Assembly (NCBI GenBank): GCA_037441705.1
Contig: JBBIRR010000038.1
Coordinates: 1 to 37,203 of the forward strand
Origin: Ignavibacteriales bacterium
GTDB lineage: Bacteria > Bacteroidota > Ignavibacteria > UBA10030 > UBA6906
Length of the DNA stretch: 37,203 nt
Direction: 5' to 3'
Shown here: piece by piece, positions 18,402-37,203 of the stretch
Layout of the letters: every line of letters begins with the position of its first letter
How positions within the stretch are numbered: position 1 is the stretch's first letter
Position numbers and translations under genes: made by a program
Notes under the pieces: model-generated
Seen by the model: only the letters and a program-made list of their open reading frames with translations
Database searches by the model: none
What the model was told of the DNA's origin: nothing

Positions 18402-19052
18402 ATGACCATTCTCGCCCTTTCCGACATTCACGGCGCGTACGAAAGAATGATGGACGTCGTGCATGCCAACCCTGACACCGACATCATCATCGTCGCCGGA
18501 GATCTCACGACACACGGCACAGCTCAAGAAGCAGAAGCAGCAATCGGGTTGCTGCAGAAAACGGCGAAGCCCGTCTTCGTTGTAGCGGGAAACATGGATC
18601 CCCCTGAGCTGGACGATGTGTTCACGCGGCTGGGTGTCTCCATTAACGGGCGAGGTTTGATCGTTGACGGAGTGGGATTCTTCGGCGTTTCAGGGGCTCC
18701 GGTTTCACCTCTCATGACGCCGAACGAGATTTCGGAAGACGAGATTGCGCGTCGGGCGGAAGCGGGATGGCAGAATGTTGCAGAGGCACGATGGAAGGTT
18801 TTTGTTCCGCACGCCCCGCCCCACAACACGCGTGTCGACATCGTTCGTTCGGGAAAGCATGTCGGCAGCACGGCGGTCCGGGCGTTCATCGAGCGGTTTC
18901 GCCCGGATGCCGTTCTCTGCGGCCACATTCACGAAGCGCGCGGCGTGGACTCAGTCGGTTCAACCCACGTAATCAACTGCGGGCCGGCGGGTCAGGGCAT
19001 GTACGGAATAGTTCGAATTGATGAACGAATCCACGTGGCTGCGCGACCATGA
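18402..19052 (+). CDS. Calcineurin-like metallophosphoesterase
   Basis: SDIHG, AGDLT, AGNMD, HAPP, CGHIHE motifs. Confidence 0.92.
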   Translation: MTILALSDIHGAYERMMDVVHANPDTDIIIVAGDLTTHGTAQEAEAAIGLLQKTAKPVFVVAGNMDPPELDDVFTRLGVSINGRGLIVDGVGFFGVSGAPVSPLMTPNEISEDEIARRAEAGWQNVAEARWKVFVPHAPPHNTRVDIVRSGKHVGSTAVRAFIERFRPDAVLCGHIHEARGVDSVGSTHVINCGPAGQGMYGIVRIDERIHVAARP

Positions 19053-19074
19053 GCCTGACCTGCATACAAAACAC

Positions 19075-19108
19075 AACGCCCTCCCACTCGTACGAAGGGG
19101 AGGGCGTT
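19075..19108. terminator. Hairpin between convergent genes (terminator, stronger on minus strand)
   Basis: AACGCCCTCCC / GGGAGGGCGTT 11-bp stem. The minus strand continues GTGTTTTGT. Confidence 0.7.
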
Positions 19109-19133
19109 AATGGACTGTCCCAGTCTTGTTGGA

Positions 19134-19322
19134 TCAGCTATCTGTCTTCAAGTAAAAAGGTAACTGCTGACGCATACGCTCGCGCTTAGCGCGGTATGCC
19201 ATCTCCTTTTTCTTGCAGCTTGGGCAACGATAGGCACCAACCTGGCCCCTAAACTCGTTCCCGCAGTCCCGACAAATAGTGGAACCACGTTTCTTCATTC
19301 TTGCATCGCCTTTGTAGTTCAT
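19134..19322 (-). CDS. Small basic zinc-ribbon protein (62 aa)
   Basis: CRDC-x11-CPSC, Lys/Arg-rich. GAGGAG SD upstream, AT-rich upstream region, terminator downstream. Confidence 0.6.
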   Translation of the reverse strand: MNYKGDARMKKRGSTICRDCGNEFRGQVGAYRCPSCKKKEMAYRAKRERMRQQLPFYLKTDS

Positions 19323-19456
19323 AAGCTTTTTCTCCTCGGTTAATATAACGATTTCCTAGAAAAGTTGGTTCAGAAATTTTTTCCTCTTCATCTAACCTCC
19401 CCAAAAACGGCTCGTTTTGGGCAATTTTCTGTATTAAATTTTTTTAGAAAATTGCC

Positions 19457-19885
19457 ATGAAGAGCCATAAGAGTAAAGGGGCGAACAAGTTACAACGTCG
19501 CTTGCTGGCGTATGCCAACAAGGCAAAGGCAAATGCCTATGCGCCATACTCCGGCTTTCGAGTCGGGGCGGCGCTGCTGACTGTTGATGGTTCAATCTTC
19601 ACAGGCTGTAACGTGGAAAACAGCTCCTATTCCTTAACGATTTGTACCGAGCGCAATGCGGTCTTCAAAGCGGTGTGCGAAGGTCACGCCCGATTCAAGG
19701 CAATTGCGATCTCGACGGACAGGAATGAATTCGTGCCGCCGTGCGGCGCGTGCCGACAGGTGCTGTCGGAATTCTGCCCCGATCTGAAGGTAATCCTGGC
19801 CAATGCGGCCGGCGAAACGCGAACAGTAGCTCTTGCCAGGCTGTTGCCAATGCCGGCCGACCTGAAACACTTGCGCAAGCGATGA
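19457..19885 (+). CDS. cdd: Cytidine deaminase (homotetrameric type)
   Basis: AYAPYSGFRVGAAL, GCNVEN, CTE, PCGACRQ zinc motifs. Confidence 0.95.
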   Translation: MKSHKSKGANKLQRRLLAYANKAKANAYAPYSGFRVGAALLTVDGSIFTGCNVENSSYSLTICTERNAVFKAVCEGHARFKAIAISTDRNEFVPPCGACRQVLSEFCPDLKVILANAAGETRTVALARLLPMPADLKHLRKR

Positions 19886-31682: not shown

Positions 31683-32561
31683 TCACTCAATATTTTGCAA
31701 CTGCTCACGGATGCGTTCCAGCTCCTCCTTGATGGCGACCACAAGGTGAGCGATCTCGGCGGAGGTGCTCTTCGAGCCGATGGTGTTCGCTTCACGGTTC
31801 ATCTCTTGAATCAGAAAATTCAGCTTGCGGCCCGCCGCCTCGTCATCCTCCAGTGCTTCGAGGAAAAATTTGTTGTGGCTGCGGAAGCGGACACATTCTT
31901 CGGTCACGTCCAGGCGATCCGCCATCAGCGCGAGCTCCATCTCCAATCGCCCTTCATCAATCGTCTCCTGTTCCAAAAGCTGCTTGATGCGCTCGCGCAG
32001 CCGCATGCGCTCGGCCGGAATCTGTTCTGCCGAGAGCTTCTCGATCTGCGCGATCCGCTCTGCCAGCAAGCCGATGCGGTAGCGGAAATCCTTTTCCAGT
32101 TCCTTGCCCTCGTTCCGTTTCATCGTCAGGAGGTTCTCGATGGCCTCATCGAGCGCGCGCAGCAGCAACCCCCATTCCTGTTCGTCGGTATTCTCCAGCT
32201 CCACCGGCTCCAGCACCTCGGAGAACTGGAGAAGATGTTCCAACTTCACCGTCTGCTTCAGCTTCACGCTCTTGCGAAGCTCGTTCAAGAGCTTGTAGTA
32301 GCCTTTCGCAGCGGAGGCATTGATGCGTACCGGGATCGCGCCGTCGTTCGCATGTTCAACAAGAGCAAGCATATTGATCTTGCCCCGTGAAATCTTTTTT
32401 CGAATAATCTCCTTGATCTCGTTTTCGCGAGCCGAGAGCGACCGCGGGAGCCGGGTGGTCACTTCAAGGAACCGGCTGTTGACGCTCCGCAGTTCTACCG
32501 CTACGGTGATCTCCCGGGCACGCGCCTCCCCTCTGCCGTAGCCGGTCATGCTGGCTACCAT
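31683..32561 (-). CDS. yicC: YicC/YloC family endoribonuclease
   Basis: SMTGYG, ELRSVNSRFLE, RGK, DVTEE, GRKLNFLIQEMNREANTIGSK, REQLQNIE. Confidence 0.95.
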   Translation of the reverse strand: MVASMTGYGRGEARAREITVAVELRSVNSRFLEVTTRLPRSLSARENEIKEIIRKKISRGKINMLALVEHANDGAIPVRINASAAKGYYKLLNELRKSVKLKQTVKLEHLLQFSEVLEPVELENTDEQEWGLLLRALDEAIENLLTMKRNEGKELEKDFRYRIGLLAERIAQIEKLSAEQIPAERMRLRERIKQLLEQETIDEGRLEMELALMADRLDVTEECVRFRSHNKFFLEALEDDEAAGRKLNFLIQEMNREANTIGSKSTSAEIAHLVVAIKEELERIREQLQNIE

Positions 32562-32592
32562 TTCAACCTCGTATTTGGATGTTTCGGGACTA

Positions 32593-32600
32593 CAAAGGTA
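32593..32600 (-). promoter_or_regulatory. TAnnTTTG (-7) promoter box for the yicC operon
   Basis: Minus strand reads TTGCA...TACCTTTG about 30 nt upstream of the yicC ATG, matching the Bacteroidota -7 consensus. Confidence 0.5.
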
Positions 32601-32632
32601 AGCAAAAGCGGCTTTGCCTGCAACGCTCGGCG

Positions 32633-33244
32633 TCAGGCTTTGCGCGCCTCATACTTCCAGTTGCGTGACTTTCCTTCAGCCAGCCACGCGACCGTCGTCG
32701 CGATACGTTTTTCACGCGTCTCGGGCTTCTTTGCATCGGTGACCCATTCGATGTACTCCCGCTTGTGCGAGGGCGGGAAGCGTTCGAATGTGGCCAGAGC
32801 CTTGCTGTTTTTCTTCAGTGCAGCAGCAAGGTCGGCGGGTACGCGTACAGGTTTTTTTGCAGCAGGTTTCGAGCGTTTCACTTTTACGCCGGCCTCGTTC
32901 AATGCCGCCGCTTCTTTGATGTACGCGATCATCACCCTATCCGAGGGCAGGTCGTTCAGGCTGGTGATCTTGCCAAGGTGTCCCATCGCTTCATCCGAAG
33001 AGAGGATTTTGTGCCGGTCTTTCATCAGCGAAGCTTTCCAGAAGCCGAATGCACAGTGGTGCTTGAACGACGCCATGCTGCAGACGATTCCCTTGTAGTC
33101 GAAGTGGGGAAAACTCCACTTCATCGTCTCCTGCACATCGGGACAGGCTTTGTGGACGAGCGCGCGGAGGTGTTCGAGAATCGGGCGCGCAAATTCCGCA
33201 GCCTTTGCAATGTAGGCATCAACGCGAGGATCGTTCGTTCCCAT
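32633..33244 (-). CDS. YdeI/OmpD-associated family protein (DUF1801 + OmdA domains)
   Basis: DPRVDAYI, ETMKWSFPHF, FKHHC.FGFWK; C-terminal VPADL, PSHKREYIEWV..AKKPETREKRI. Confidence 0.85.
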   Translation of the reverse strand: MGTNDPRVDAYIAKAAEFARPILEHLRALVHKACPDVQETMKWSFPHFDYKGIVCSMASFKHHCAFGFWKASLMKDRHKILSSDEAMGHLGKITSLNDLPSDRVMIAYIKEAAALNEAGVKVKRSKPAAKKPVRVPADLAAALKKNSKALATFERFPPSHKREYIEWVTDAKKPETREKRIATTVAWLAEGKSRNWKYEARKA

Positions 33245-33310
33245 AAACAAACACGAAATGGTTGAACATGCAAAACGATATGCGTGATGTTCCGAGCCGA
33301 AGCGTGTGCG

Positions 33311-33883
33311 TTACTTCTTATTCTCTCGTGCTGCTGCCTCCTGCTGTGCTGCAGTCCACGGCGGCACGATGCCGTTCATGCGAGCGTAGGCGATGGACTG
33401 CCCGAGATGTTCGTGGTTATGGGCGAACGCAATCAGCAACATGCCGCGCACGGTGGTTTTCAGGCCGAAGAAGGTCGCGGGTTTTTCCAACTCCTTGTCG
33501 CTCATGTTGCTGATGGCTCCCTTCAGGAAATCGAACGACTTGTGCAGCTTGTCCGCGATCTCTTTCTTGTTTGTTGTGGATGCTTCGGCCTTCCCCATGT
33601 CGCTCAACTTGGGCAGCACGACGTCGTCGGGAAGTTTGATGCCCGCAAACGTTGCCAGCAGGTAATTTCCCCACGCGATATGCATGTACACTTCGCTGAT
33701 CGAGCGGACTCCCTCTGCGGGGCGCCACGTCATCTTTTCATCGGGGATGGCGTTTTCCAGATCCAGGATTTGTTTTTCCACGTAAGCGATCTGTGCGAGC
33801 AAGTCGCCTCGGAATCCGCTCGGCTCATCGGCATGCGACGACGCAGCAAGGAACAACAGCGAGCAACACAAGAGGCGTTTCAT
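33311..33883 (-). CDS. Exported DinB/YfiT-like four-helix protein
   Basis: Signal peptide; WRPAEGVRSISEV..HIA, HNHEHLGQ..AYARMNGIVPPW. AAGGAG SD before ATG 33883. Confidence 0.85.
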   Translation of the reverse strand: MKRLLCCSLLFLAASSHADEPSGFRGDLLAQIAYVEKQILDLENAIPDEKMTWRPAEGVRSISEVYMHIAWGNYLLATFAGIKLPDDVVLPKLSDMGKAEASTTNKKEIADKLHKSFDFLKGAISNMSDKELEKPATFFGLKTTVRGMLLIAFAHNHEHLGQSIAYARMNGIVPPWTAAQQEAAARENKK

Positions 33884-33967
33884 AACGCATCTCCTTCGGG
33901 GATTGGTGAATGAACGGTGAATGGCTGTCAAGTCTAAGCATTCTCAACACAAAACTCAACTGGACGC

Positions 33968-34864
33968 TCACATAGCCGAGGCAGCATCGGTGATCAAAGC
34001 TCGCAGCACGTTCATATTCTCTACATCCTCGTGCATGTCATCGCTTTTCGGGGTTTCGAGGATCTTGGGGATGTCGGCACAACGCGGATCGTTCATCAGC
34101 ATCCTGAACGCCGTCAGGCCGATCGTTCCTTTGCCGATATGTTCGTGGCGGTCGACGCGCGCGCCGCATTCGCGCCGGGAGTCGTTGACGTGCACGGCTA
34201 CAAGCCGCTCAAGCCCCAGAATCTCGTTAAACTCATGCAGCATGCTTTCCCATCCTTCCTCGGTGCTGATGTCGTACCCGGCAGCAAACAGATGGCACGT
34301 ATCGAGACAGACGGCCATACGGTTGCTCTCTTCGACGCGATCGATGATCCGACGCAGATGCTCGAACCGATATCCGACGGCGGTTCCTTGTCCGGCGGTG
34401 CACTCGAGCGTGGTCAGCACACGAACGTCCGGCGTTCGTTCGTGTACGAATGCAAGCGACTCGGCGATTCGTTTGATGCCCTCCTCCTCACCCGCGCCGA
34501 GGTGGGCGCCGGGATGCAAGATGAGCGCCGTGATGCCCAACGCGTCGCACCGCTGCAGCTCGTCGATGAGCGCATGGCGTGAGCGCTTCAGCGTAACCGG
34601 ATCGCGGGCGCACAGATTGATGAGATACGCGGCGTGGGCAACGACGGGGTTGATGGCCGTTCGCTCTTGTTCTGTCCTGAAGAGACGAACGTCTTCCGGC
34701 GTGAGCGGTGGGCCCGTCCATTGCGTATTGTTCTTCACGAACACCTGCATGGTCGTGCAGCCAACCTGCGCACCGCGTCGAAACGCCGTGTGCATGCCGT
34801 TCGCGATGGACATGTGGGCGCCAAGAAGGATCCTCCGTTGTGGCGATTGGTTGGCAGGCACCAT
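33968..34864 (-). CDS. nfo: Endonuclease IV (AP endonuclease)
   Basis: GAHMSIA, HAAYLINL, HPG, LECTAGQG, CLDTCHLFAAGYD, HVNDS, DRHEHIG.G, ILETP. Confidence 0.96.
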   Translation of the reverse strand: MVPANQSPQRRILLGAHMSIANGMHTAFRRGAQVGCTTMQVFVKNNTQWTGPPLTPEDVRLFRTEQERTAINPVVAHAAYLINLCARDPVTLKRSRHALIDELQRCDALGITALILHPGAHLGAGEEEGIKRIAESLAFVHERTPDVRVLTTLECTAGQGTAVGYRFEHLRRIIDRVEESNRMAVCLDTCHLFAAGYDISTEEGWESMLHEFNEILGLERLVAVHVNDSRRECGARVDRHEHIGKGTIGLTAFRMLMNDPRCADIPKILETPKSDDMHEDVENMNVLRALITDAASAM

Positions 34865-35128
34865 GGTTCAAAGATAAGCAAACGCGAAGAAACTGTTCGT
34901 GCCATTTCCGTCGGAACGTCCGGCATTCCCGCATGCGCGCTGCCATCTCCCGCAGAACATGCCGGGTTTTTCCTTCAACCATGGCTCAGTTTCGGCTGGC
35001 ATGTAACGTGAGACAGTATCGAGCAGCGAAGGGAGTGGATGCAACTTTCTCAAGTTTTTTGTAAGCTGGTTGCGCTCAGTACGCAACTCCATCAATTCAT
35101 CCCAATCACAATTCACAAGGAGATTGTT

Positions 35129-36016
35129 ATGAAACACGTGCTGCGTTTGTTCGGTGTCTGGACGCTCTGCCTGCTGTTGGTGCCGCGTCTCAGCGCTCAG
35201 TCGGATGCAGAGGCCGATTCCACCGGCTTGCCCGGCGACAACTTCAGTCTGGAGGGAGCGCTTGAGATGTTCAAGAAAGCCGGTTCGCCCGAAGAGTTCG
35301 AGAAACTCATCAACACAACCGACAACCACGTTAACAATCTCGACCTCAACGGCGATGGCGAGGTGGATTATGTTCGTGTTGTGGGGAAGATGGAGAAAGA
35401 CGCGCACGCGTTTGTGCTGCAGGTTCCCGTCTCCGAGACAGAGAGCCAGGACATTGCCGTCATCGAGCTGGAGAAGACAGGAGATGAATCGGCGGTGATC
35501 CAGATTATTGGTGATGAGGACATCTACGGCGAGCAGAAGATCGTCGAGCCGAAAGGTGAAGGCGAAGAAGATTCGGAGGATGATGGCGGCAACGGAGGCG
35601 GGCCCTCCGCGGGAAGCTGGACTGAAGCCTACGCGCCGATGCCCATTGTTGTTGTAAATGTGTGGGGATGGCCGTGCGTGCGCTATGTGTACGCGCCGAC
35701 CTACCGCGTGTGGGTCTCGCCGTGGCGATGGGCGGTGTATCCGGTGTGGTGGCGTCCGTGGCGACCTTTTGCCTGGCGTGTGTGGCATCCGTTCCGCGTG
35801 CGGCATCATGTGGGCTTTGCCGTCGTGCGCACGCATCGCGTTGTGCATGCGCACCGCATCTACGCGCCGCACAGGACAGTCTCTCTCACGGTGCACAAGC
35901 GCCACGGCGGCGCGGTGACGCATTACCGAACGACACGCACGGTCACCAAAACTAAAGGCGGGGCCGTGAAGGTCAAAACCACCCGCACGAAAACAACGGT
36001 CCGGAAGAAACGCTGA
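35129..36016 (+). CDS. Exported hypothetical protein with EF-hand-like DxNxDG motif and Trp/Arg/His-rich C-terminus
   Basis: AAGGAG SD, signal peptide, NNLDLNGDGEVDY, acidic N-half, W/P/R-rich segment then basic tail. Confidence 0.8.
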   Translation: MKHVLRLFGVWTLCLLLVPRLSAQSDAEADSTGLPGDNFSLEGALEMFKKAGSPEEFEKLINTTDNHVNNLDLNGDGEVDYVRVVGKMEKDAHAFVLQVPVSETESQDIAVIELEKTGDESAVIQIIGDEDIYGEQKIVEPKGEGEEDSEDDGGNGGGPSAGSWTEAYAPMPIVVVNVWGWPCVRYVYAPTYRVWVSPWRWAVYPVWWRPWRPFAWRVWHPFRVRHHVGFAVVRTHRVVHAHRIYAPHRTVSLTVHKRHGGAVTHYRTTRTVTKTKGGAVKVKTTRTKTTVRKKR

Positions 36017-36034: not shown

Positions 36035-36062
36035 GTAGGGACGTTCCGACGAACGTCCCTAC
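36035..36062. repeat. GTAG-type REP-like palindrome
   Basis: GTAGGGACGTTC-cgac-GAACGTCCCTAC, a perfect 12-bp inverted repeat starting with GTAG, 18 nt after a stop codon. Confidence 0.65.
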
Positions 36063-36120
36063 AGGTTTTCTTGCTTCATTGCTTGAAGCCACGAGACACC
36101 GCCACACACTCCTTGCCTCC

Positions 36121-36202
36121 CGACCACGATTCACTCGATTCTCTTGATTACCACGATTACAAACCAATCATGGTAATCCTATAATCCCACAAATCACGGT
36201 CG
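36121..36202. repeat. Palindromic GATT/AATC repeat R1
   Basis: CGACCAC, GATT at 36128/37/46/55, loop, AATC at 36166/75/83/92, ACGGTCG. Confidence 0.9.
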
Positions 36203-36470
36203 AGACGGTTTGTATTTCTTGTTGTGCAGTCGATTGAATTCGAGGCTTCAGGCGCCGAAGTTTATCAAGAGGCCGACTTCAAGATTATATGCCTCGAGAT
36301 AATTCAACGCCTGCGCGAGATGCACATCCTCCAGTACCGTGAGCGCTTTGAGTTCAATCATGATCTTATCTTCTACAAGAAAATCAGCTCTTCGGGTGCC
36401 GACCTGTTGCTCCCGATAGAGAATCGGCATCTGTACTTTTCTGCACAAGTTCATACACTGCCCAATAGAC
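36194..36470 (-). pseudogene. Decayed GxxExxY-family gene (5' deletion plus in-frame stop)
   Basis: MPILY..QVGTRRADFLVEDKIMIELK...LLINFGA*SLEFNRLHNKKYKPSRP* aligns with the intact neighbour (FGARSLEFKRLHNKKYKPSEP*). TGA at 36248-50 replaces Arg, and the GxxExxY segment is missing. Confidence 0.88.
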
Positions 36471-36473
36471 TTC

Positions 36474-36554
36474 CGACCACGATTCACATGATTTGCTTGA
36501 TTACCACAATGACAGGTTAATCTCGATAATCCCTAAATCCCAAACATCGTGGTC
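36474..36554. repeat. Palindromic GATT/AATC repeat R2 (more degenerate)
   Basis: CGACCAC, GATT at 36481/90/99, AATC at 36519/28/36, CATCGTGGTC. Confidence 0.85.
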
Positions 36555-36637
36555 AGGCTTCGGTGAGACCGAGCGCATCGAAGACGACATCATCCAACGC
36601 CTTCCGGTCCGGCAGCGGATTGGGATGCTGGGATAAT
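36553..36637 (-). pseudogene. Short coding fragment between R3 and R2, resembling the C-terminal region of N6-adenine methyltransferase/type IIG-like RM proteins
   Basis: Minus frame reads LSQHPNPLPDRKALDDVVFDALGLTEA*. GC-rich relative to the flanks. Family resemblance is from memory, not a search. Confidence 0.5.
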
Positions 36638-36727
36638 GTCTGAACCACGATTCGCTCGATTCACTTGATTACCCAGATTACAAAAAATCAAGGTAATCCT
36701 AATAAACCCAAAAATCATGGTTCAGAC
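36638..36727. repeat. Palindromic GATT/AATC repeat R3 (best preserved)
   Basis: GTCTGAACCAC, GATT at 36649/58/67/76, loop, AATC at 36686/95, AAAC at 36704, AATC at 36713, ATGGTTCAGAC. Exact 9-nt spacing. Confidence 0.92.
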
Positions 36728-37101
36728 GGTTTATACTTCTTATTATGCAATCTCTTGAACTCCAAACTCCTTGCACCGAAGTTGATCAGCAAACCAATTT
36801 CCAGATTGTACGCTTCGAGATAGTTCATGGCTTGTGCAAGGTGGACGTCTTCGAGTTTGGTGAGAGCTTTAAGCTCGACACTGATTGTTTCTTCAACAAG
36901 AAAATCCACGCGTCGTGTTCCAACTTCGATGCCGTCATAATGGATCGGCATTTCAAATTCACGTGCAAACGTAAGCCCCTGCTTGCCCATTTCGATTTCC
37001 ATGCAGCGCTGATAAATCACTTCTTGGAATCCATTCCCCAGCGTCGAGTGCACCTTCATCGCACAGCCGATGATTTTTTGTGTAATATCTTCGTACTTCA
37101 T
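36715..37101 (-). CDS. GxxExxY protein (PD-(D/E)XK nuclease superfamily), 128 aa
   Basis: IIGCAMKVHSTLGNGFQEVIY (GxxExxY), RVDFLVE...VELK catalytic pattern, AQAMNYL, GLLINFG. Confidence 0.95.
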   Translation of the reverse strand: MKYEDITQKIIGCAMKVHSTLGNGFQEVIYQRCMEIEMGKQGLTFAREFEMPIHYDGIEVGTRRVDFLVEETISVELKALTKLEDVHLAQAMNYLEAYNLEIGLLINFGARSLEFKRLHNKKYKPSEP

Positions 37102-37173
37102 ACCACGATTCACTTGATTATTACGATAAAATAATCATGGTAATCCCATAATCCTAAAAATCACGGTTCAGAC
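37102..37173. repeat. Palindromic GATT/AATC repeat R4 (one 9-mer unit shorter)
   Basis: ACCAC, GATT at 37107/16, GATA at 37125, AATC at 37133/42/50/59, ACGGTTCAGAC. Confidence 0.9.
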
Positions 37174-37203
37174 ACTCTTCGCCTTCTTCAACCTATTCTG
37201 CAC
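37168..37203 (-). CDS. 3' end of a gene entering from beyond the window (possibly an N6-methyltransferase/RM protein)
   Basis: Minus frame VQNRLKKAKSV*, with its TGA inside the R4 arm. Only 11 codons are visible. Confidence 0.45.
   Translation of the reverse strand: MQNRLKKAKSV

Follow-up and report, generated by a model that had tools for sequence, protein, structure and literature searches.

Described elements of comparable design

The described elements that appear nearest in design to the one reported here are the intervening sequences (IVS) of 23S rRNA genes that carry an open reading frame (ORF), as in Coxiella and Leptospira, with an ORF of the S23p or four-helix-bundle type. In the available part of its description, the Coxiella IVS is a "selfish" element of 428 nt whose terminal inverted repeats lie in a 28-bp stem, with a small S23p ORF in the loop and excision by RNase III; three to four tandem GACAGAT heptamers precede the ORF, and the origin of the element is called unclear (PMC4990558). 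IVS without an ORF measure 83-112 nt in the accessible portion of a second study (PMC2672173). The locus analyzed here is part of a 37,203-nt stretch, termed the window below, from an Ignavibacteriales bacterium (assembly GCA_037441705.1, contig JBBIRR010000038.1, positions 1 to 37,203 of the forward strand); in it, four related imperfect palindromes built from GATT and AATC boxes (R1 to R4) bracket one intact and one decayed gene of the GxxExxY (PD-(D/E)XK) family. R1-R4 belong to a large palindrome family that crosses phylum boundaries; GxxExxY genes are associated with such arms, the boxes of the arms are specific to protein clades, related genomes differ by the presence or absence of the element with the arms as its boundaries, and one gene-less copy is a deletion derivative. 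It is moderately probable that the GATT-box hairpin is the non-coding partner of one GxxExxY clade within a compact, selfish insertion element of the foldback type, whose boxes would be bound by the nuclease, with cuts at the termini, and which would spread through break repair or recombination between copies.

As far as the excerpted IVS studies extend, the shared traits are a size of about 430-450 nt, inverted-repeat boundaries, a single small ORF with short tandem repeats beside it, ORF-less hairpin forms of about 80-110 nt, a patchy distribution, and decay of the ORF; a four-helix-bundle gene also stands beside a GATT hairpin in one locus (L105). The GATT element differs from the IVS by its position outside rRNA (there is no rRNA match in the window, and the flanks are protein-coding), by its PD-(D/E)XK cargo, by arms that consist of phased-box arrays with poorly paired fillers, and by the hundred-fold dispersal of gene-less copies beside ordinary genes. 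On this comparison, an inverted-repeat-bounded selfish element with gene-less derivatives, located outside rRNA and carrying a nuclease, would be new, whereas its IVS-like general form would be known.

Eukaryotic foldback transposons have long inverted arms of short tandem subrepeats, and most of their copies consist of arms only, few being coding; they belong to another domain of life and differ in size and enzyme, and from what is generally known of them the likeness is one of form only. Free-standing homing endonuclease genes, some of them of the PD-(D/E)XK type, are small nuclease genes that are not bounded by box-built inverted repeats; as generally understood, they too insert precisely between conserved genes, are present or absent among relatives and are prone to decay, but they leave no dispersed hairpin copies. 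REP-associated tyrosine transposases (RAYTs), which are Y1 (HUH) enzymes similar to those of IS200/IS605, are the partners of repetitive extragenic palindromes (REPs) and REPINs. In the part of the source that was available, REPs are palindromes of 20-40 bp with a GTAG or CGTC head (PMC3733652). The GATT palindromes resemble REPs as dispersed extragenic palindromes mostly 3' of genes, and their partner gene is likewise flanked by repeats; their dispersal is extragenic and in high copy number (116 elements in 91 loci), with 49 of 65 adjacencies at gene 3' ends. They differ in a partner that belongs to PF13366, is not a Y1/HUH transposase and is often multi-copy, and in a length of about 85 bp with internal phased boxes, starting with GTCTGAACCACGATT and lacking GTAG or CGTC heads. 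Miniature transposable elements with inverted repeats (MITEs) and insertion sequences (IS) share the terminal inverted repeats on gene-bearing and gene-less copies (loci L101 and L116), the greater abundance of gene-less copies, one copy with an internal deletion, and presence or absence bounded by the arms; unlike them, the GATT element has no DDE, serine, tyrosine or HUH transposase, its sole ORF being a 125-aa PF13366 protein, and in the clade of the window has the gene outside the hairpins; no target-site duplication was recognizable between filled and empty sites, which come from different species or genera.

A preliminary description of this DNA, made from the sequence alone, knew of no named system with this architecture, and the searches agree: Rfam gave no match in the window, none was found in the searched part of PubMed Central, which comprised full texts without supplements, and the enzymes that define REP/RAYT, MITE/IS and integron systems were not found among 31 window ORFs or the 61 flanking ORFs with Pfam matches. 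The terminal 14-15-mers and CAGAGGA-type arm strings were absent from the searched full texts, and these texts contained no link of GxxExxY, PDDEXK_3, PF13366, TIGR04256 or IPR026350 to repeats, nor, among the papers listed, of PDDEXK to terminal inverted repeats or MITEs; one passage mentions GxxExxY solely as a domain in the neighborhood.

Palindromes and GxxExxY genes in the window

Pattern matches and a covariance model both recover the four related repeats that had been noticed previously, at 36117-36206 (R1), 36470-36559 (R2), 36638-36727 (R3) and 37096-37173 (R4), none with an assigned strand. In their common design, a left end ACCACGATT is followed by GATT boxes at intervals of about 9 nt, and after a short loop come mirrored AATC boxes and the right end ATCRYGGT; the 9-nt period ascribed to them earlier stands as a periodicity of the boxes, but the spacing is 8-9 nt and not strictly 9. 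The pattern GATT-N5-GATT-N5-GATT, with at most one mismatch, occurs nine times in the window and eight times within 36128-37128, compared to 0.17 matches expected from shuffles; a stricter pattern that combines the ACCACGATT end, one more GATT box and the ATCRYGGT end matches R1-R4 and nothing else, with an expectation of 0. The covariance model was trained on 44 family members, including R1-R3 and excluding R4; the scan of the window with such a model, a step that the preliminary description had proposed, yielded R1-R4 as the sole matches in 37,203 bases on both strands, all of them in a span of 1.06 kb around the two GxxExxY genes.

R1 is a complete GATT-box palindrome (pattern match; 76.2 bits in the covariance model) located directly 3' of the decayed GxxExxY copy, and its outer arms are variant, with CGACC instead of GAACC. 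R2, which adjoins the truncated 5' end of the decayed gene, is the most diverged copy (52.4 bits), and R3 is a complete palindrome with full GTCTGA/TCAGAC outer arms (81.3 bits). R4 is shorter, its left arm being composed of two GATT boxes and a GATA, and reaches 43.4 bits (E 2e-10) although it was outside the training set; its outer end retains TCAGAC, and it lacks the gene-side outer arm since its inner end ...AATCGTGGT adjoins the ATG of the intact gene.

The presence of one intact and one decayed GxxExxY gene, proposed earlier from the letters and ORFs only, is confirmed by matches to the TIGR04256 and PF13366 profiles. The intact gene (36715..37101, minus strand) encodes 128 aa and exceeds the curated thresholds of both profiles (TIGR04256, 6.8e-42, 142.5 bits, cut-off 35; PF13366, 2.2e-40, 138.1 bits, cut-off 22). 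It retains E27, E37, D66 and E76-x-K78; the near-invariant columns among 49 aligned relatives are G22, Y30, E37, Y55, D66 and K78, with E76 preceding K78. Residues E37, D66 and E76/K78 are those that we take, from general knowledge of the PD-(D/E)XK fold, to be the nuclease motif. The intact gene ends within R3, the first bases of which are its final four codons with the stop (S-E-P-stop); this tail within R3 and the abutment of the ATG to R4 correct the earlier account of the gene layout.

From the N-terminal end of the decayed gene (36207..36454, minus strand), about 38 codons are missing, and a TGA interrupts its frame at 36248-36250; the frame is otherwise kept to the end. The remnant ORF, 36248-36487(-), covers only profile positions 39-106 (TIGR04256, 3.6e-21; 75.7 and 76.9 bits against TIGR04256 and PF13366, respectively). 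The TGA sits 18 codons ahead of the natural end, and the frame beyond it reads ...SLEFNRLHNKKYKPSRP-stop into R1. The two genes of the window are identical at 63 of 86 residues (73%), and the decayed one is 92.6% identical to an intact homolog from elsewhere, P0035; the two genes are therefore separate arrivals, not a tandem duplication. The variant arm of R1 is read as S-R-P-stop by the decayed gene, and P0035 has the same KPSRP tail; since the S-R-P tail is shared by both, the gene travels with the beginning of its 3' hairpin.

At E<=0.001, the GxxExxY/PDDEXK_3 family comprises 15,874 clusters at 50% identity. A search of solved structures with the GxxExxY protein, by sequence and by profile, gave nothing meaningful; defence-system models matched it with Cas4b alone (E=0.0026), PHROGs with a single weak match of unknown function, and a tblastn search of a phage collection gave no match. 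Some family members (among them P0139, P0148, P0159, P0170 and P0173) have 250-293 aa and two matched stretches, that is, tandem double GxxExxY domains; P0160, with 568 aa, also has two GxxExxY-matched stretches. The function of GxxExxY/PDDEXK_3 is given as "Unknown" in a table of the only survey among the searched texts that lists the family (PMC3424549).

Distribution of the palindrome family

A single scan of 185,579 genomes, made with a DNA pattern rather than a protein in order to locate the repeat irrespective of any gene, returned 114 loci. The covariance model supports 116 elements in 91 of these (103 in 80 of the loci L001-L100, and 13 in 11 of L101-L114); the other 23 loci, which contain no model-supported element and served as a negative control, fit a hand estimate of about 28 chance pattern matches. 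Although the search pattern did not contain the outer arms GTCTGA/TCAGAC, almost every true copy has them on its flanks. Most carriers belong to the Bacteroidota (Chitinophagaceae, Mucilaginibacter, Saprospiraceae, Flavobacteriales and Bacteroidales); others are Ignavibacteriota, Chlorobiaceae, Armatimonadota, Desulfuromonadales and Chloroflexia bins.

Among 147 flanking ORFs scanned, 61 had Pfam matches, nearly all of them to housekeeping proteins (S9, PurS, ThiC, TruB, BacA, Hsp90, aminotransferases and glycosidases), and none of these 61 was a transposase or integrase. Of 65 scored adjacencies, 49 place the hairpin at the 3' end of a gene and 16 at a 5' end; hairpins often lie between convergent genes, and often a few bases from a stop codon. 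Tandem doublets or triplets of hairpins with spacers of 8-13 nt occur in L010 (6441-6758), L094 (4406-4690), L019 (5574-5760), L025 (303-489) and L080 (321-507), and the spacers recur within a locus: ATTGAGAT is found twice in L094, and AATGGGGG... follows two of the three hairpins in L010.

There are hints that several small "hitch-hiker" gene families share the GATT palindromes. In L046 (5198-5583), a 95-aa GIY-YIG gene, positioned directly after an apparent tRNA 3' end, has its stop inside the GTCTGA of a hairpin; in L105 (773-1455), a four-helix-bundle (23S_rRNA_IVP) gene ends 33 nt before a hairpin; and in L049 (4283-4869), a PIN gene lies 74 nt before one. A single case in Prevotella nigrescens (L126, 1328-1444), a four-helix-bundle gene followed by two short palindromes of a different kind with CTAGGAA-type boxes, bears on whether IVS-type genes outside rRNA have box-built repeats of their own but was not used further.

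Association of GxxExxY genes with box-built arms

Proteins 76-84% identical to that of the window are encoded in L105 (a Bacteroidota bin), L082 (a Chlorobiaceae bin) and L010 (a Bacteroidetes bin); hairpins stand on both sides of the gene in L105 and L082, and three tandem hairpins lie upstream of it in L010. The hairpin-encoded C-terminal S-E-P-stop is common to the window and L105, the abutment of a hairpin to the start codon (...ATGGT followed directly by ATG) is found in the window, in L082 and in a decayed copy in L094, and a 3' gene remnant is attached to a hairpin in L029 and L066. All five of the window-type genes or remnants that were found by profile in the fetched loci (L105, L082, L010, L094 and L029) adjoin a hairpin; the remnant in L066, detected by alignment only, is a sixth case. 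Among the 120 closest database homologs (74-100% identical, the protein of the window included), at least 29 start or end with residues translated from a hairpin, with the C-termini SEP (11), GSD (4) and NPxI (7) and the N-termini VQT (3) and GSD (4). Of the same 120 homologs, 56 occur only on contigs of at most 2 kb; this fits a repeat that breaks assemblies, or, as no control was made, the composition of metagenome data.

An exhaustive tblastn search of a plasmid collection provided a sample that is blind to hairpins; it returned eight records, and a distant family member as second query returned the same eight. Phased-box repeats flank the GxxExxY gene in all eight, with box sequences that include CAGAGGA, CACAGAGA, CGCGAAG, CGGATTCG, ACAAAT and others; a blastn search of the plasmid records with R3 gave no match. 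In Persicobacter, whose protein is 66% identical to that of the window, GATT/AATC box arrays occur within 40 kb only at the flanks of the GxxExxY gene. In Gemmatirosa, complete hairpins of CGCAGAGGA boxes stand on both sides and end in ...GGTTCAGAC as in the window; in Bacteroides finegoldii, CACCACAGAGGACGCAGAGGACACGGAGGA precedes the gene and its near-complement follows. The flank boxes are CACAGAGA in Bernardetia and of the ACAAAT type in P. nigrescens, the arms read TCACACGGATTCG... in Treponema, and TTCACGCGAAGGCGCGAGGACGCGAAG and its complement flank the gene in Sphingomonas; a Fusobacteria plasmid has 52-nt direct repeats in these positions, and L101, L002 and L021 add three further box types.

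Controls agree with this association. In a comparison of 15 GxxExxY genes with 35 control genes, the best inverted-repeat score between upstream and downstream flanks was higher for the former (Mann-Whitney p=0.0011), and the two highest-scoring control genes are neighbors of GxxExxY elements; phased boxes with at least three recurrences at 8-10 nt were present on both flanks of 10 of the 15 GxxExxY genes and of 1 of the 35 controls (Fisher p=2.9e-6). The box type tracks the protein clade: in a comparison that leaves out L101 and L120, proteins of the GATT group are 62-84% identical to each other, two proteins with CA(C)AGAG boxes are 56% identical and two with CACGC..AAG boxes 54%, and the proteins with these two box types are 30-47% identical to the GATT group. 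By shared layouts, clade-specific boxes, the controls and the filled and unfilled sites described below, the earlier proposal that repeat and nuclease form a functional unit is supported in the sense of an evolutionary unit.

Insertion, loss and derivation of gene-less copies

The comparison of orthologous loci advocated in the preliminary description shows that filled and unfilled sites exist and that inverted repeats bound the difference. In B. finegoldii, an element of about 465 bp occupies the spacer between radA and a gene for an FAD protein; the site is empty in Parabacteroides distasonis, where 13 nt separate the same two genes, and Phocaeicola has an unrelated gene there. An element also separates fabD from fabG in Sphingomonas parapaucimobilis but is absent from this site in S. 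paeninsulae. In both comparisons, inverted repeats form the ends of the additional DNA.

Two Chitinophagaceae bins, L101 and L108, have 681 and 126 nt, respectively, at one site with flanks that are 95% and 79% identical; the site contains a gene-less hairpin plus a gene-bearing element in L101, and a gene-less hairpin of another box family in L108. The gene-less copy in L101 aligns to the first 79 nt and the last ca. 80 nt of the gene-bearing copy next to it; it lacks about 310 nt and retains about 20 nt and 25 nt of the two ends of the ORF. Since both ends are retained, this hairpin derives from a gene-bearing copy, the pattern being the one typical of a deletion derivative. In Treponema, a gene-bearing and a gene-less copy also occur in one locus. 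The uncultured Chitinophagales bin L066 is syntenic with the window over 31725-36016 at 77-83% nucleotide identity; after the ortholog of 35039-36016 it has one hairpin with a remnant of about 55 nt of a GxxExxY 3' end, followed by an unrelated permease gene, at the site where the window has four hairpins and two genes. Gene and arms are inherited together and come and go together; the gene-less copies, which are the more numerous, derive from gene-bearing ones. Flanking sequence is rich in T to the left of the elements and in A to their right; this may be no more than an extension of the palindrome.

A candidate foldback-type insertion element

The palindromic unit measures about 85 bp: a 15-bp outer inverted repeat (GTCTGAACCACGATT and its complement) encloses three or four GATT boxes at a spacing of 8-9 nt, which a short loop separates from the mirrored AATC boxes. 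In combination, gene and arms would form a compact selfish insertion element, of about 450 bp with the gene inside one arm pair; the design recurs with other boxes in other GxxExxY clades. As non-autonomous copies, the gene-less hairpins would have multiplied between genes, in most cases immediately downstream of stop codons, and the window would represent a local pile-up at a 3'-3' intergenic site, with one live gene, one dead gene of another lineage, and scars of recombination. Phased boxes in both arms lead us to expect a multimeric, sequence-specific binder: several copies of the GxxExxY protein would bind the boxes, and cutting may occur at or near the conserved termini with their CAC/CGC core or at extruded cruciforms. 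A gene-less palindrome that has been cut, or a break between palindromes in tandem such as those in L010, L019, L025, L080 and L094, would then be repaired from a gene-bearing copy with the same arms, and the element would spread in a homing-like manner, by break repair or recombination between copies and without a classical transposase. In a wider and tentative version, which we regard as possible rather than probable, the GxxExxY proteins would be the mobilizing nucleases of an unrecognized, cross-phylum group of bacterial foldback elements, with binding of boxes at an 8-9-bp phase, terminal cuts of the CAC type, and break-repair spread of gene-bearing copies into gene-less palindromes; the 23S rRNA IVS would be a sister branch with a different cargo.

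Several observations weigh against this proposal. A GxxExxY gene or remnant is directly adjacent to only 8 of the 116 elements, or 12 when tandem arrays are counted, and about 90% of the GATT hairpins stand alone beside ordinary genes. An exclusive link of hairpin and GxxExxY gene, as first supposed, is not supported, given these hairpins beside housekeeping genes; the preliminary description had regarded repeats scattered without association to GxxExxY genes as evidence against its view, and the scatter is indeed found, yet GxxExxY genes do carry arms. The layouts are heterogeneous: the gene lies inside one arm pair in L101, L116, L118, L119 and L121 and between complete hairpins in the window, L105, L082 and L120, L002 and L115 have a hairpin upstream and a lone right arm downstream, L117 has direct repeats, and gene-hairpin junctions in the clade of the window vary by 0-27 nt between genomes. 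One mechanism would not obviously yield all of these layouts, and the proposal accounts neither for the layout differences nor for the route of gene-less hairpins to new sites. As a lone hydrolytic nuclease is unable to join DNA, host repair would be needed for spread, and the action of the protein on the repeats, the REP/RAYT-like idea of the preliminary description, is a prediction from sequence. No target-site duplication is recognizable, the filled and empty sites compared belong to different species or genera, and simple co-inheritance would likewise make arms and protein co-vary. Metagenome bins are the source of many loci, and the phylum assigned to a single contig may therefore be wrong.

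Arm structure and alternative explanations

The ends of the palindromes read GTCTGAACC...GGTTCAGAC. In 44 aligned copies, pairing is found in 88.5% of the cells in the outer 15 bp, in 95% in the second box and in 72% in the inner stem; in the same copies the two outer filler segments are about 31% Watson-Crick, with about half of the positions mismatched. Conservation lies in phased sequence boxes rather than in an unbroken stem; a C-A/G-C core, located a few bases in from the end, is common to the termini of the different box families.

These pairing data bear on an alternative, compatible with mobility at the DNA level, in which the arms act in the transcript as in the IVS: RNase III would cut the arms, paired either across the gene or as separate hairpins on each side of it, the RNA of the inserted gene would be excised or insulated from the operon, gene-less hairpins would be REP-like stabilizers of 3' ends, and the nuclease would have a separate role. 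We consider this rather unlikely, although the Coxiella IVS and the ORF-less IVS, as presented in the accessible parts of the two studies, have a similar form (PMC4990558; PMC2672173). The GxxExxY gene is co-directional with both neighbors in six of six annotated loci, inside operons such as fabD-fabG, and the position of hairpins at gene 3' ends (49 of 65 scored adjacencies) would suit stabilizers. Within the window, the sense strand folds better: predicted RNA folds of R1, R2 and R3 reach -41, -29 and -46.7 kcal/mol on the minus strand and -23.3, -20.2 and -29.7 kcal/mol on the plus strand, the fold of R4 is not significant on either strand, and DNA folds of the R1-R4 stretches gave no further discrimination. 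This fits the earlier suggestion of selection on a single-stranded hairpin of the coding strand for the window but not for the family: with outer fillers at about 31% Watson-Crick, most copies would form short helices interrupted by 5x5 internal loops, and transitions yield wobble pairs on the sense strand of the neighboring gene in 14 cases and on its antisense strand in 15; therefore, selection on coding-strand hairpins does not generalize. A crude box-asymmetry measure of hairpin orientation relative to neighboring genes was not consistent either (17 same, 12 opposite). Family-wide selection for an RNA hairpin was rejected on the filler pairing and the wobble-strand counts. As generally understood, RNase III does not need phased boxes conserved across phyla, and the window contains no rRNA.

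A second alternative, which seems unlikely, separates the two components: the hairpins would be MITE- or REP-like elements, moved by an unlinked enzyme or kept by the host, and the GxxExxY genes would be separate selfish genes that land by palindromes, or both would accumulate in tolerated spots. This would account for the many hairpins alone beside housekeeping genes, for the GIY-YIG (L046), four-helix-bundle (L105) and PIN (L049) genes that also adjoin GATT hairpins, for the variable gene-hairpin junctions, and for hairpins of different box families at one orthologous site in related genomes (L101 and L108). It does not predict that the box type tracks the protein clade, that the odd arm of R1 goes with its gene lineage, the S-R-P tail recurring in P0035, that the L101 hairpin keeps about 20 and 25 nt of the ORF ends, or that arms flank the gene in eight of eight records sampled without regard to hairpins. 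The remaining alternative, an integron-like cassette array with hairpins as sites of an unlinked tyrosine recombinase and gene plus 3' hairpin as the cassette, had been raised in the preliminary description and recalls the order hairpin-gene-hairpin-fragment-hairpin-gene-hairpin of the window, the behavior of gene and 3' hairpin as a unit, and the tandem hairpins of L094 and L010 with 8-13-nt spacers, similar to empty cassettes, but it is highly improbable, as no integron integrase was found in the window (31 ORFs) or among the 61 Pfam-matched flanking ORFs, the attC core as we know it is absent from the hairpin ends (GTCTGAACC...GGTTCAGAC), the junction positions vary, and cassette insertion would not place the gene inside one palindrome, as seen in five loci.

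Surroundings of the array

The fragment of about 83 bp that had been regarded as foreign DNA between R3 and R2 exists, but it measures 78 nt (36560..36637, minus strand) and reads as the C-terminal end (...DALGLTEA-stop) of an unrelated gene, with its stop in the terminal TGA of R2; the piece would thus be the 3' end of another gene. An ORF that spans it, 36553-36648(-), has no Pfam or NCBIfam match. In L094 (4700-4760), the end of an intact similar gene (...LYGLTEDEIKIVEGKSEP-stop) runs into a hairpin whose TGA supplies the stop. Gene tails of the type ...(Y/F)xLxGLTE... reach into hairpins both in the window (36560-36637) and in L094; presumably they resemble the C-termini of restriction-modification methyltransferases, a likeness that no family search confirmed.

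At the other border, 37174..37203 (minus strand) is a single open frame, cut by the end of the window, that stops at the TGA of the GTCTGA of R4, and is probably the 3' end of an upstream minus-strand gene. A hairpin resembling an intrinsic terminator (36035..36062, plus strand) belongs to the convergent gene 35039-36016(+), which places the array in a 3'-3' intergenic region. This gene is a 325-aa ORF whose C-terminal third is rich in W, R, P, V and H and of low complexity (WRPWRPFAWRVWHPFRVRHH...), based on direct repeats of 12-17 nt; its product has no Pfam or NCBIfam match, and the gene is conserved in the syntenic L066 at 77% nucleotide identity.

Elsewhere, the window carries ordinary chromosomal genes, among them those for phosphoglucomutase, CoaBC, RpoZ, an ABC-F protein and an endonuclease IV-like protein. 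The earlier statement that no transposase or integrase is present agrees with the scan of 31 window ORFs, which found none. Searches of the window gave no tRNA or tmRNA, no rRNA match and no Rfam match at the gathering score; the sole Rfam match below threshold was to a plant miRNA model (21.6 bits vs. 100). The only other dip in GC content, to 0.46 at 19001-19500, contains no hairpin element; a 62-aa ORF with two CxxC pairs, 19134-19322(-), lies between metallophosphoesterase and methylguanine-methyltransferase-like genes.

Significance

A DNA partner would give the very large GxxExxY/PDDEXK_3 family a first testable role, and the phased boxes predict a sequence-specific, multimeric mode of DNA or RNA binding for a protein of 125 residues. 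For genome annotation, the arms and boxes would allow a common class of small insertions inside operons to be recognized, and hundreds of such hairpins probably break metagenome assemblies. A link to the IVS, if true, would also suggest where those elements come from, a matter called unclear in the available part of their description (PMC4990558).

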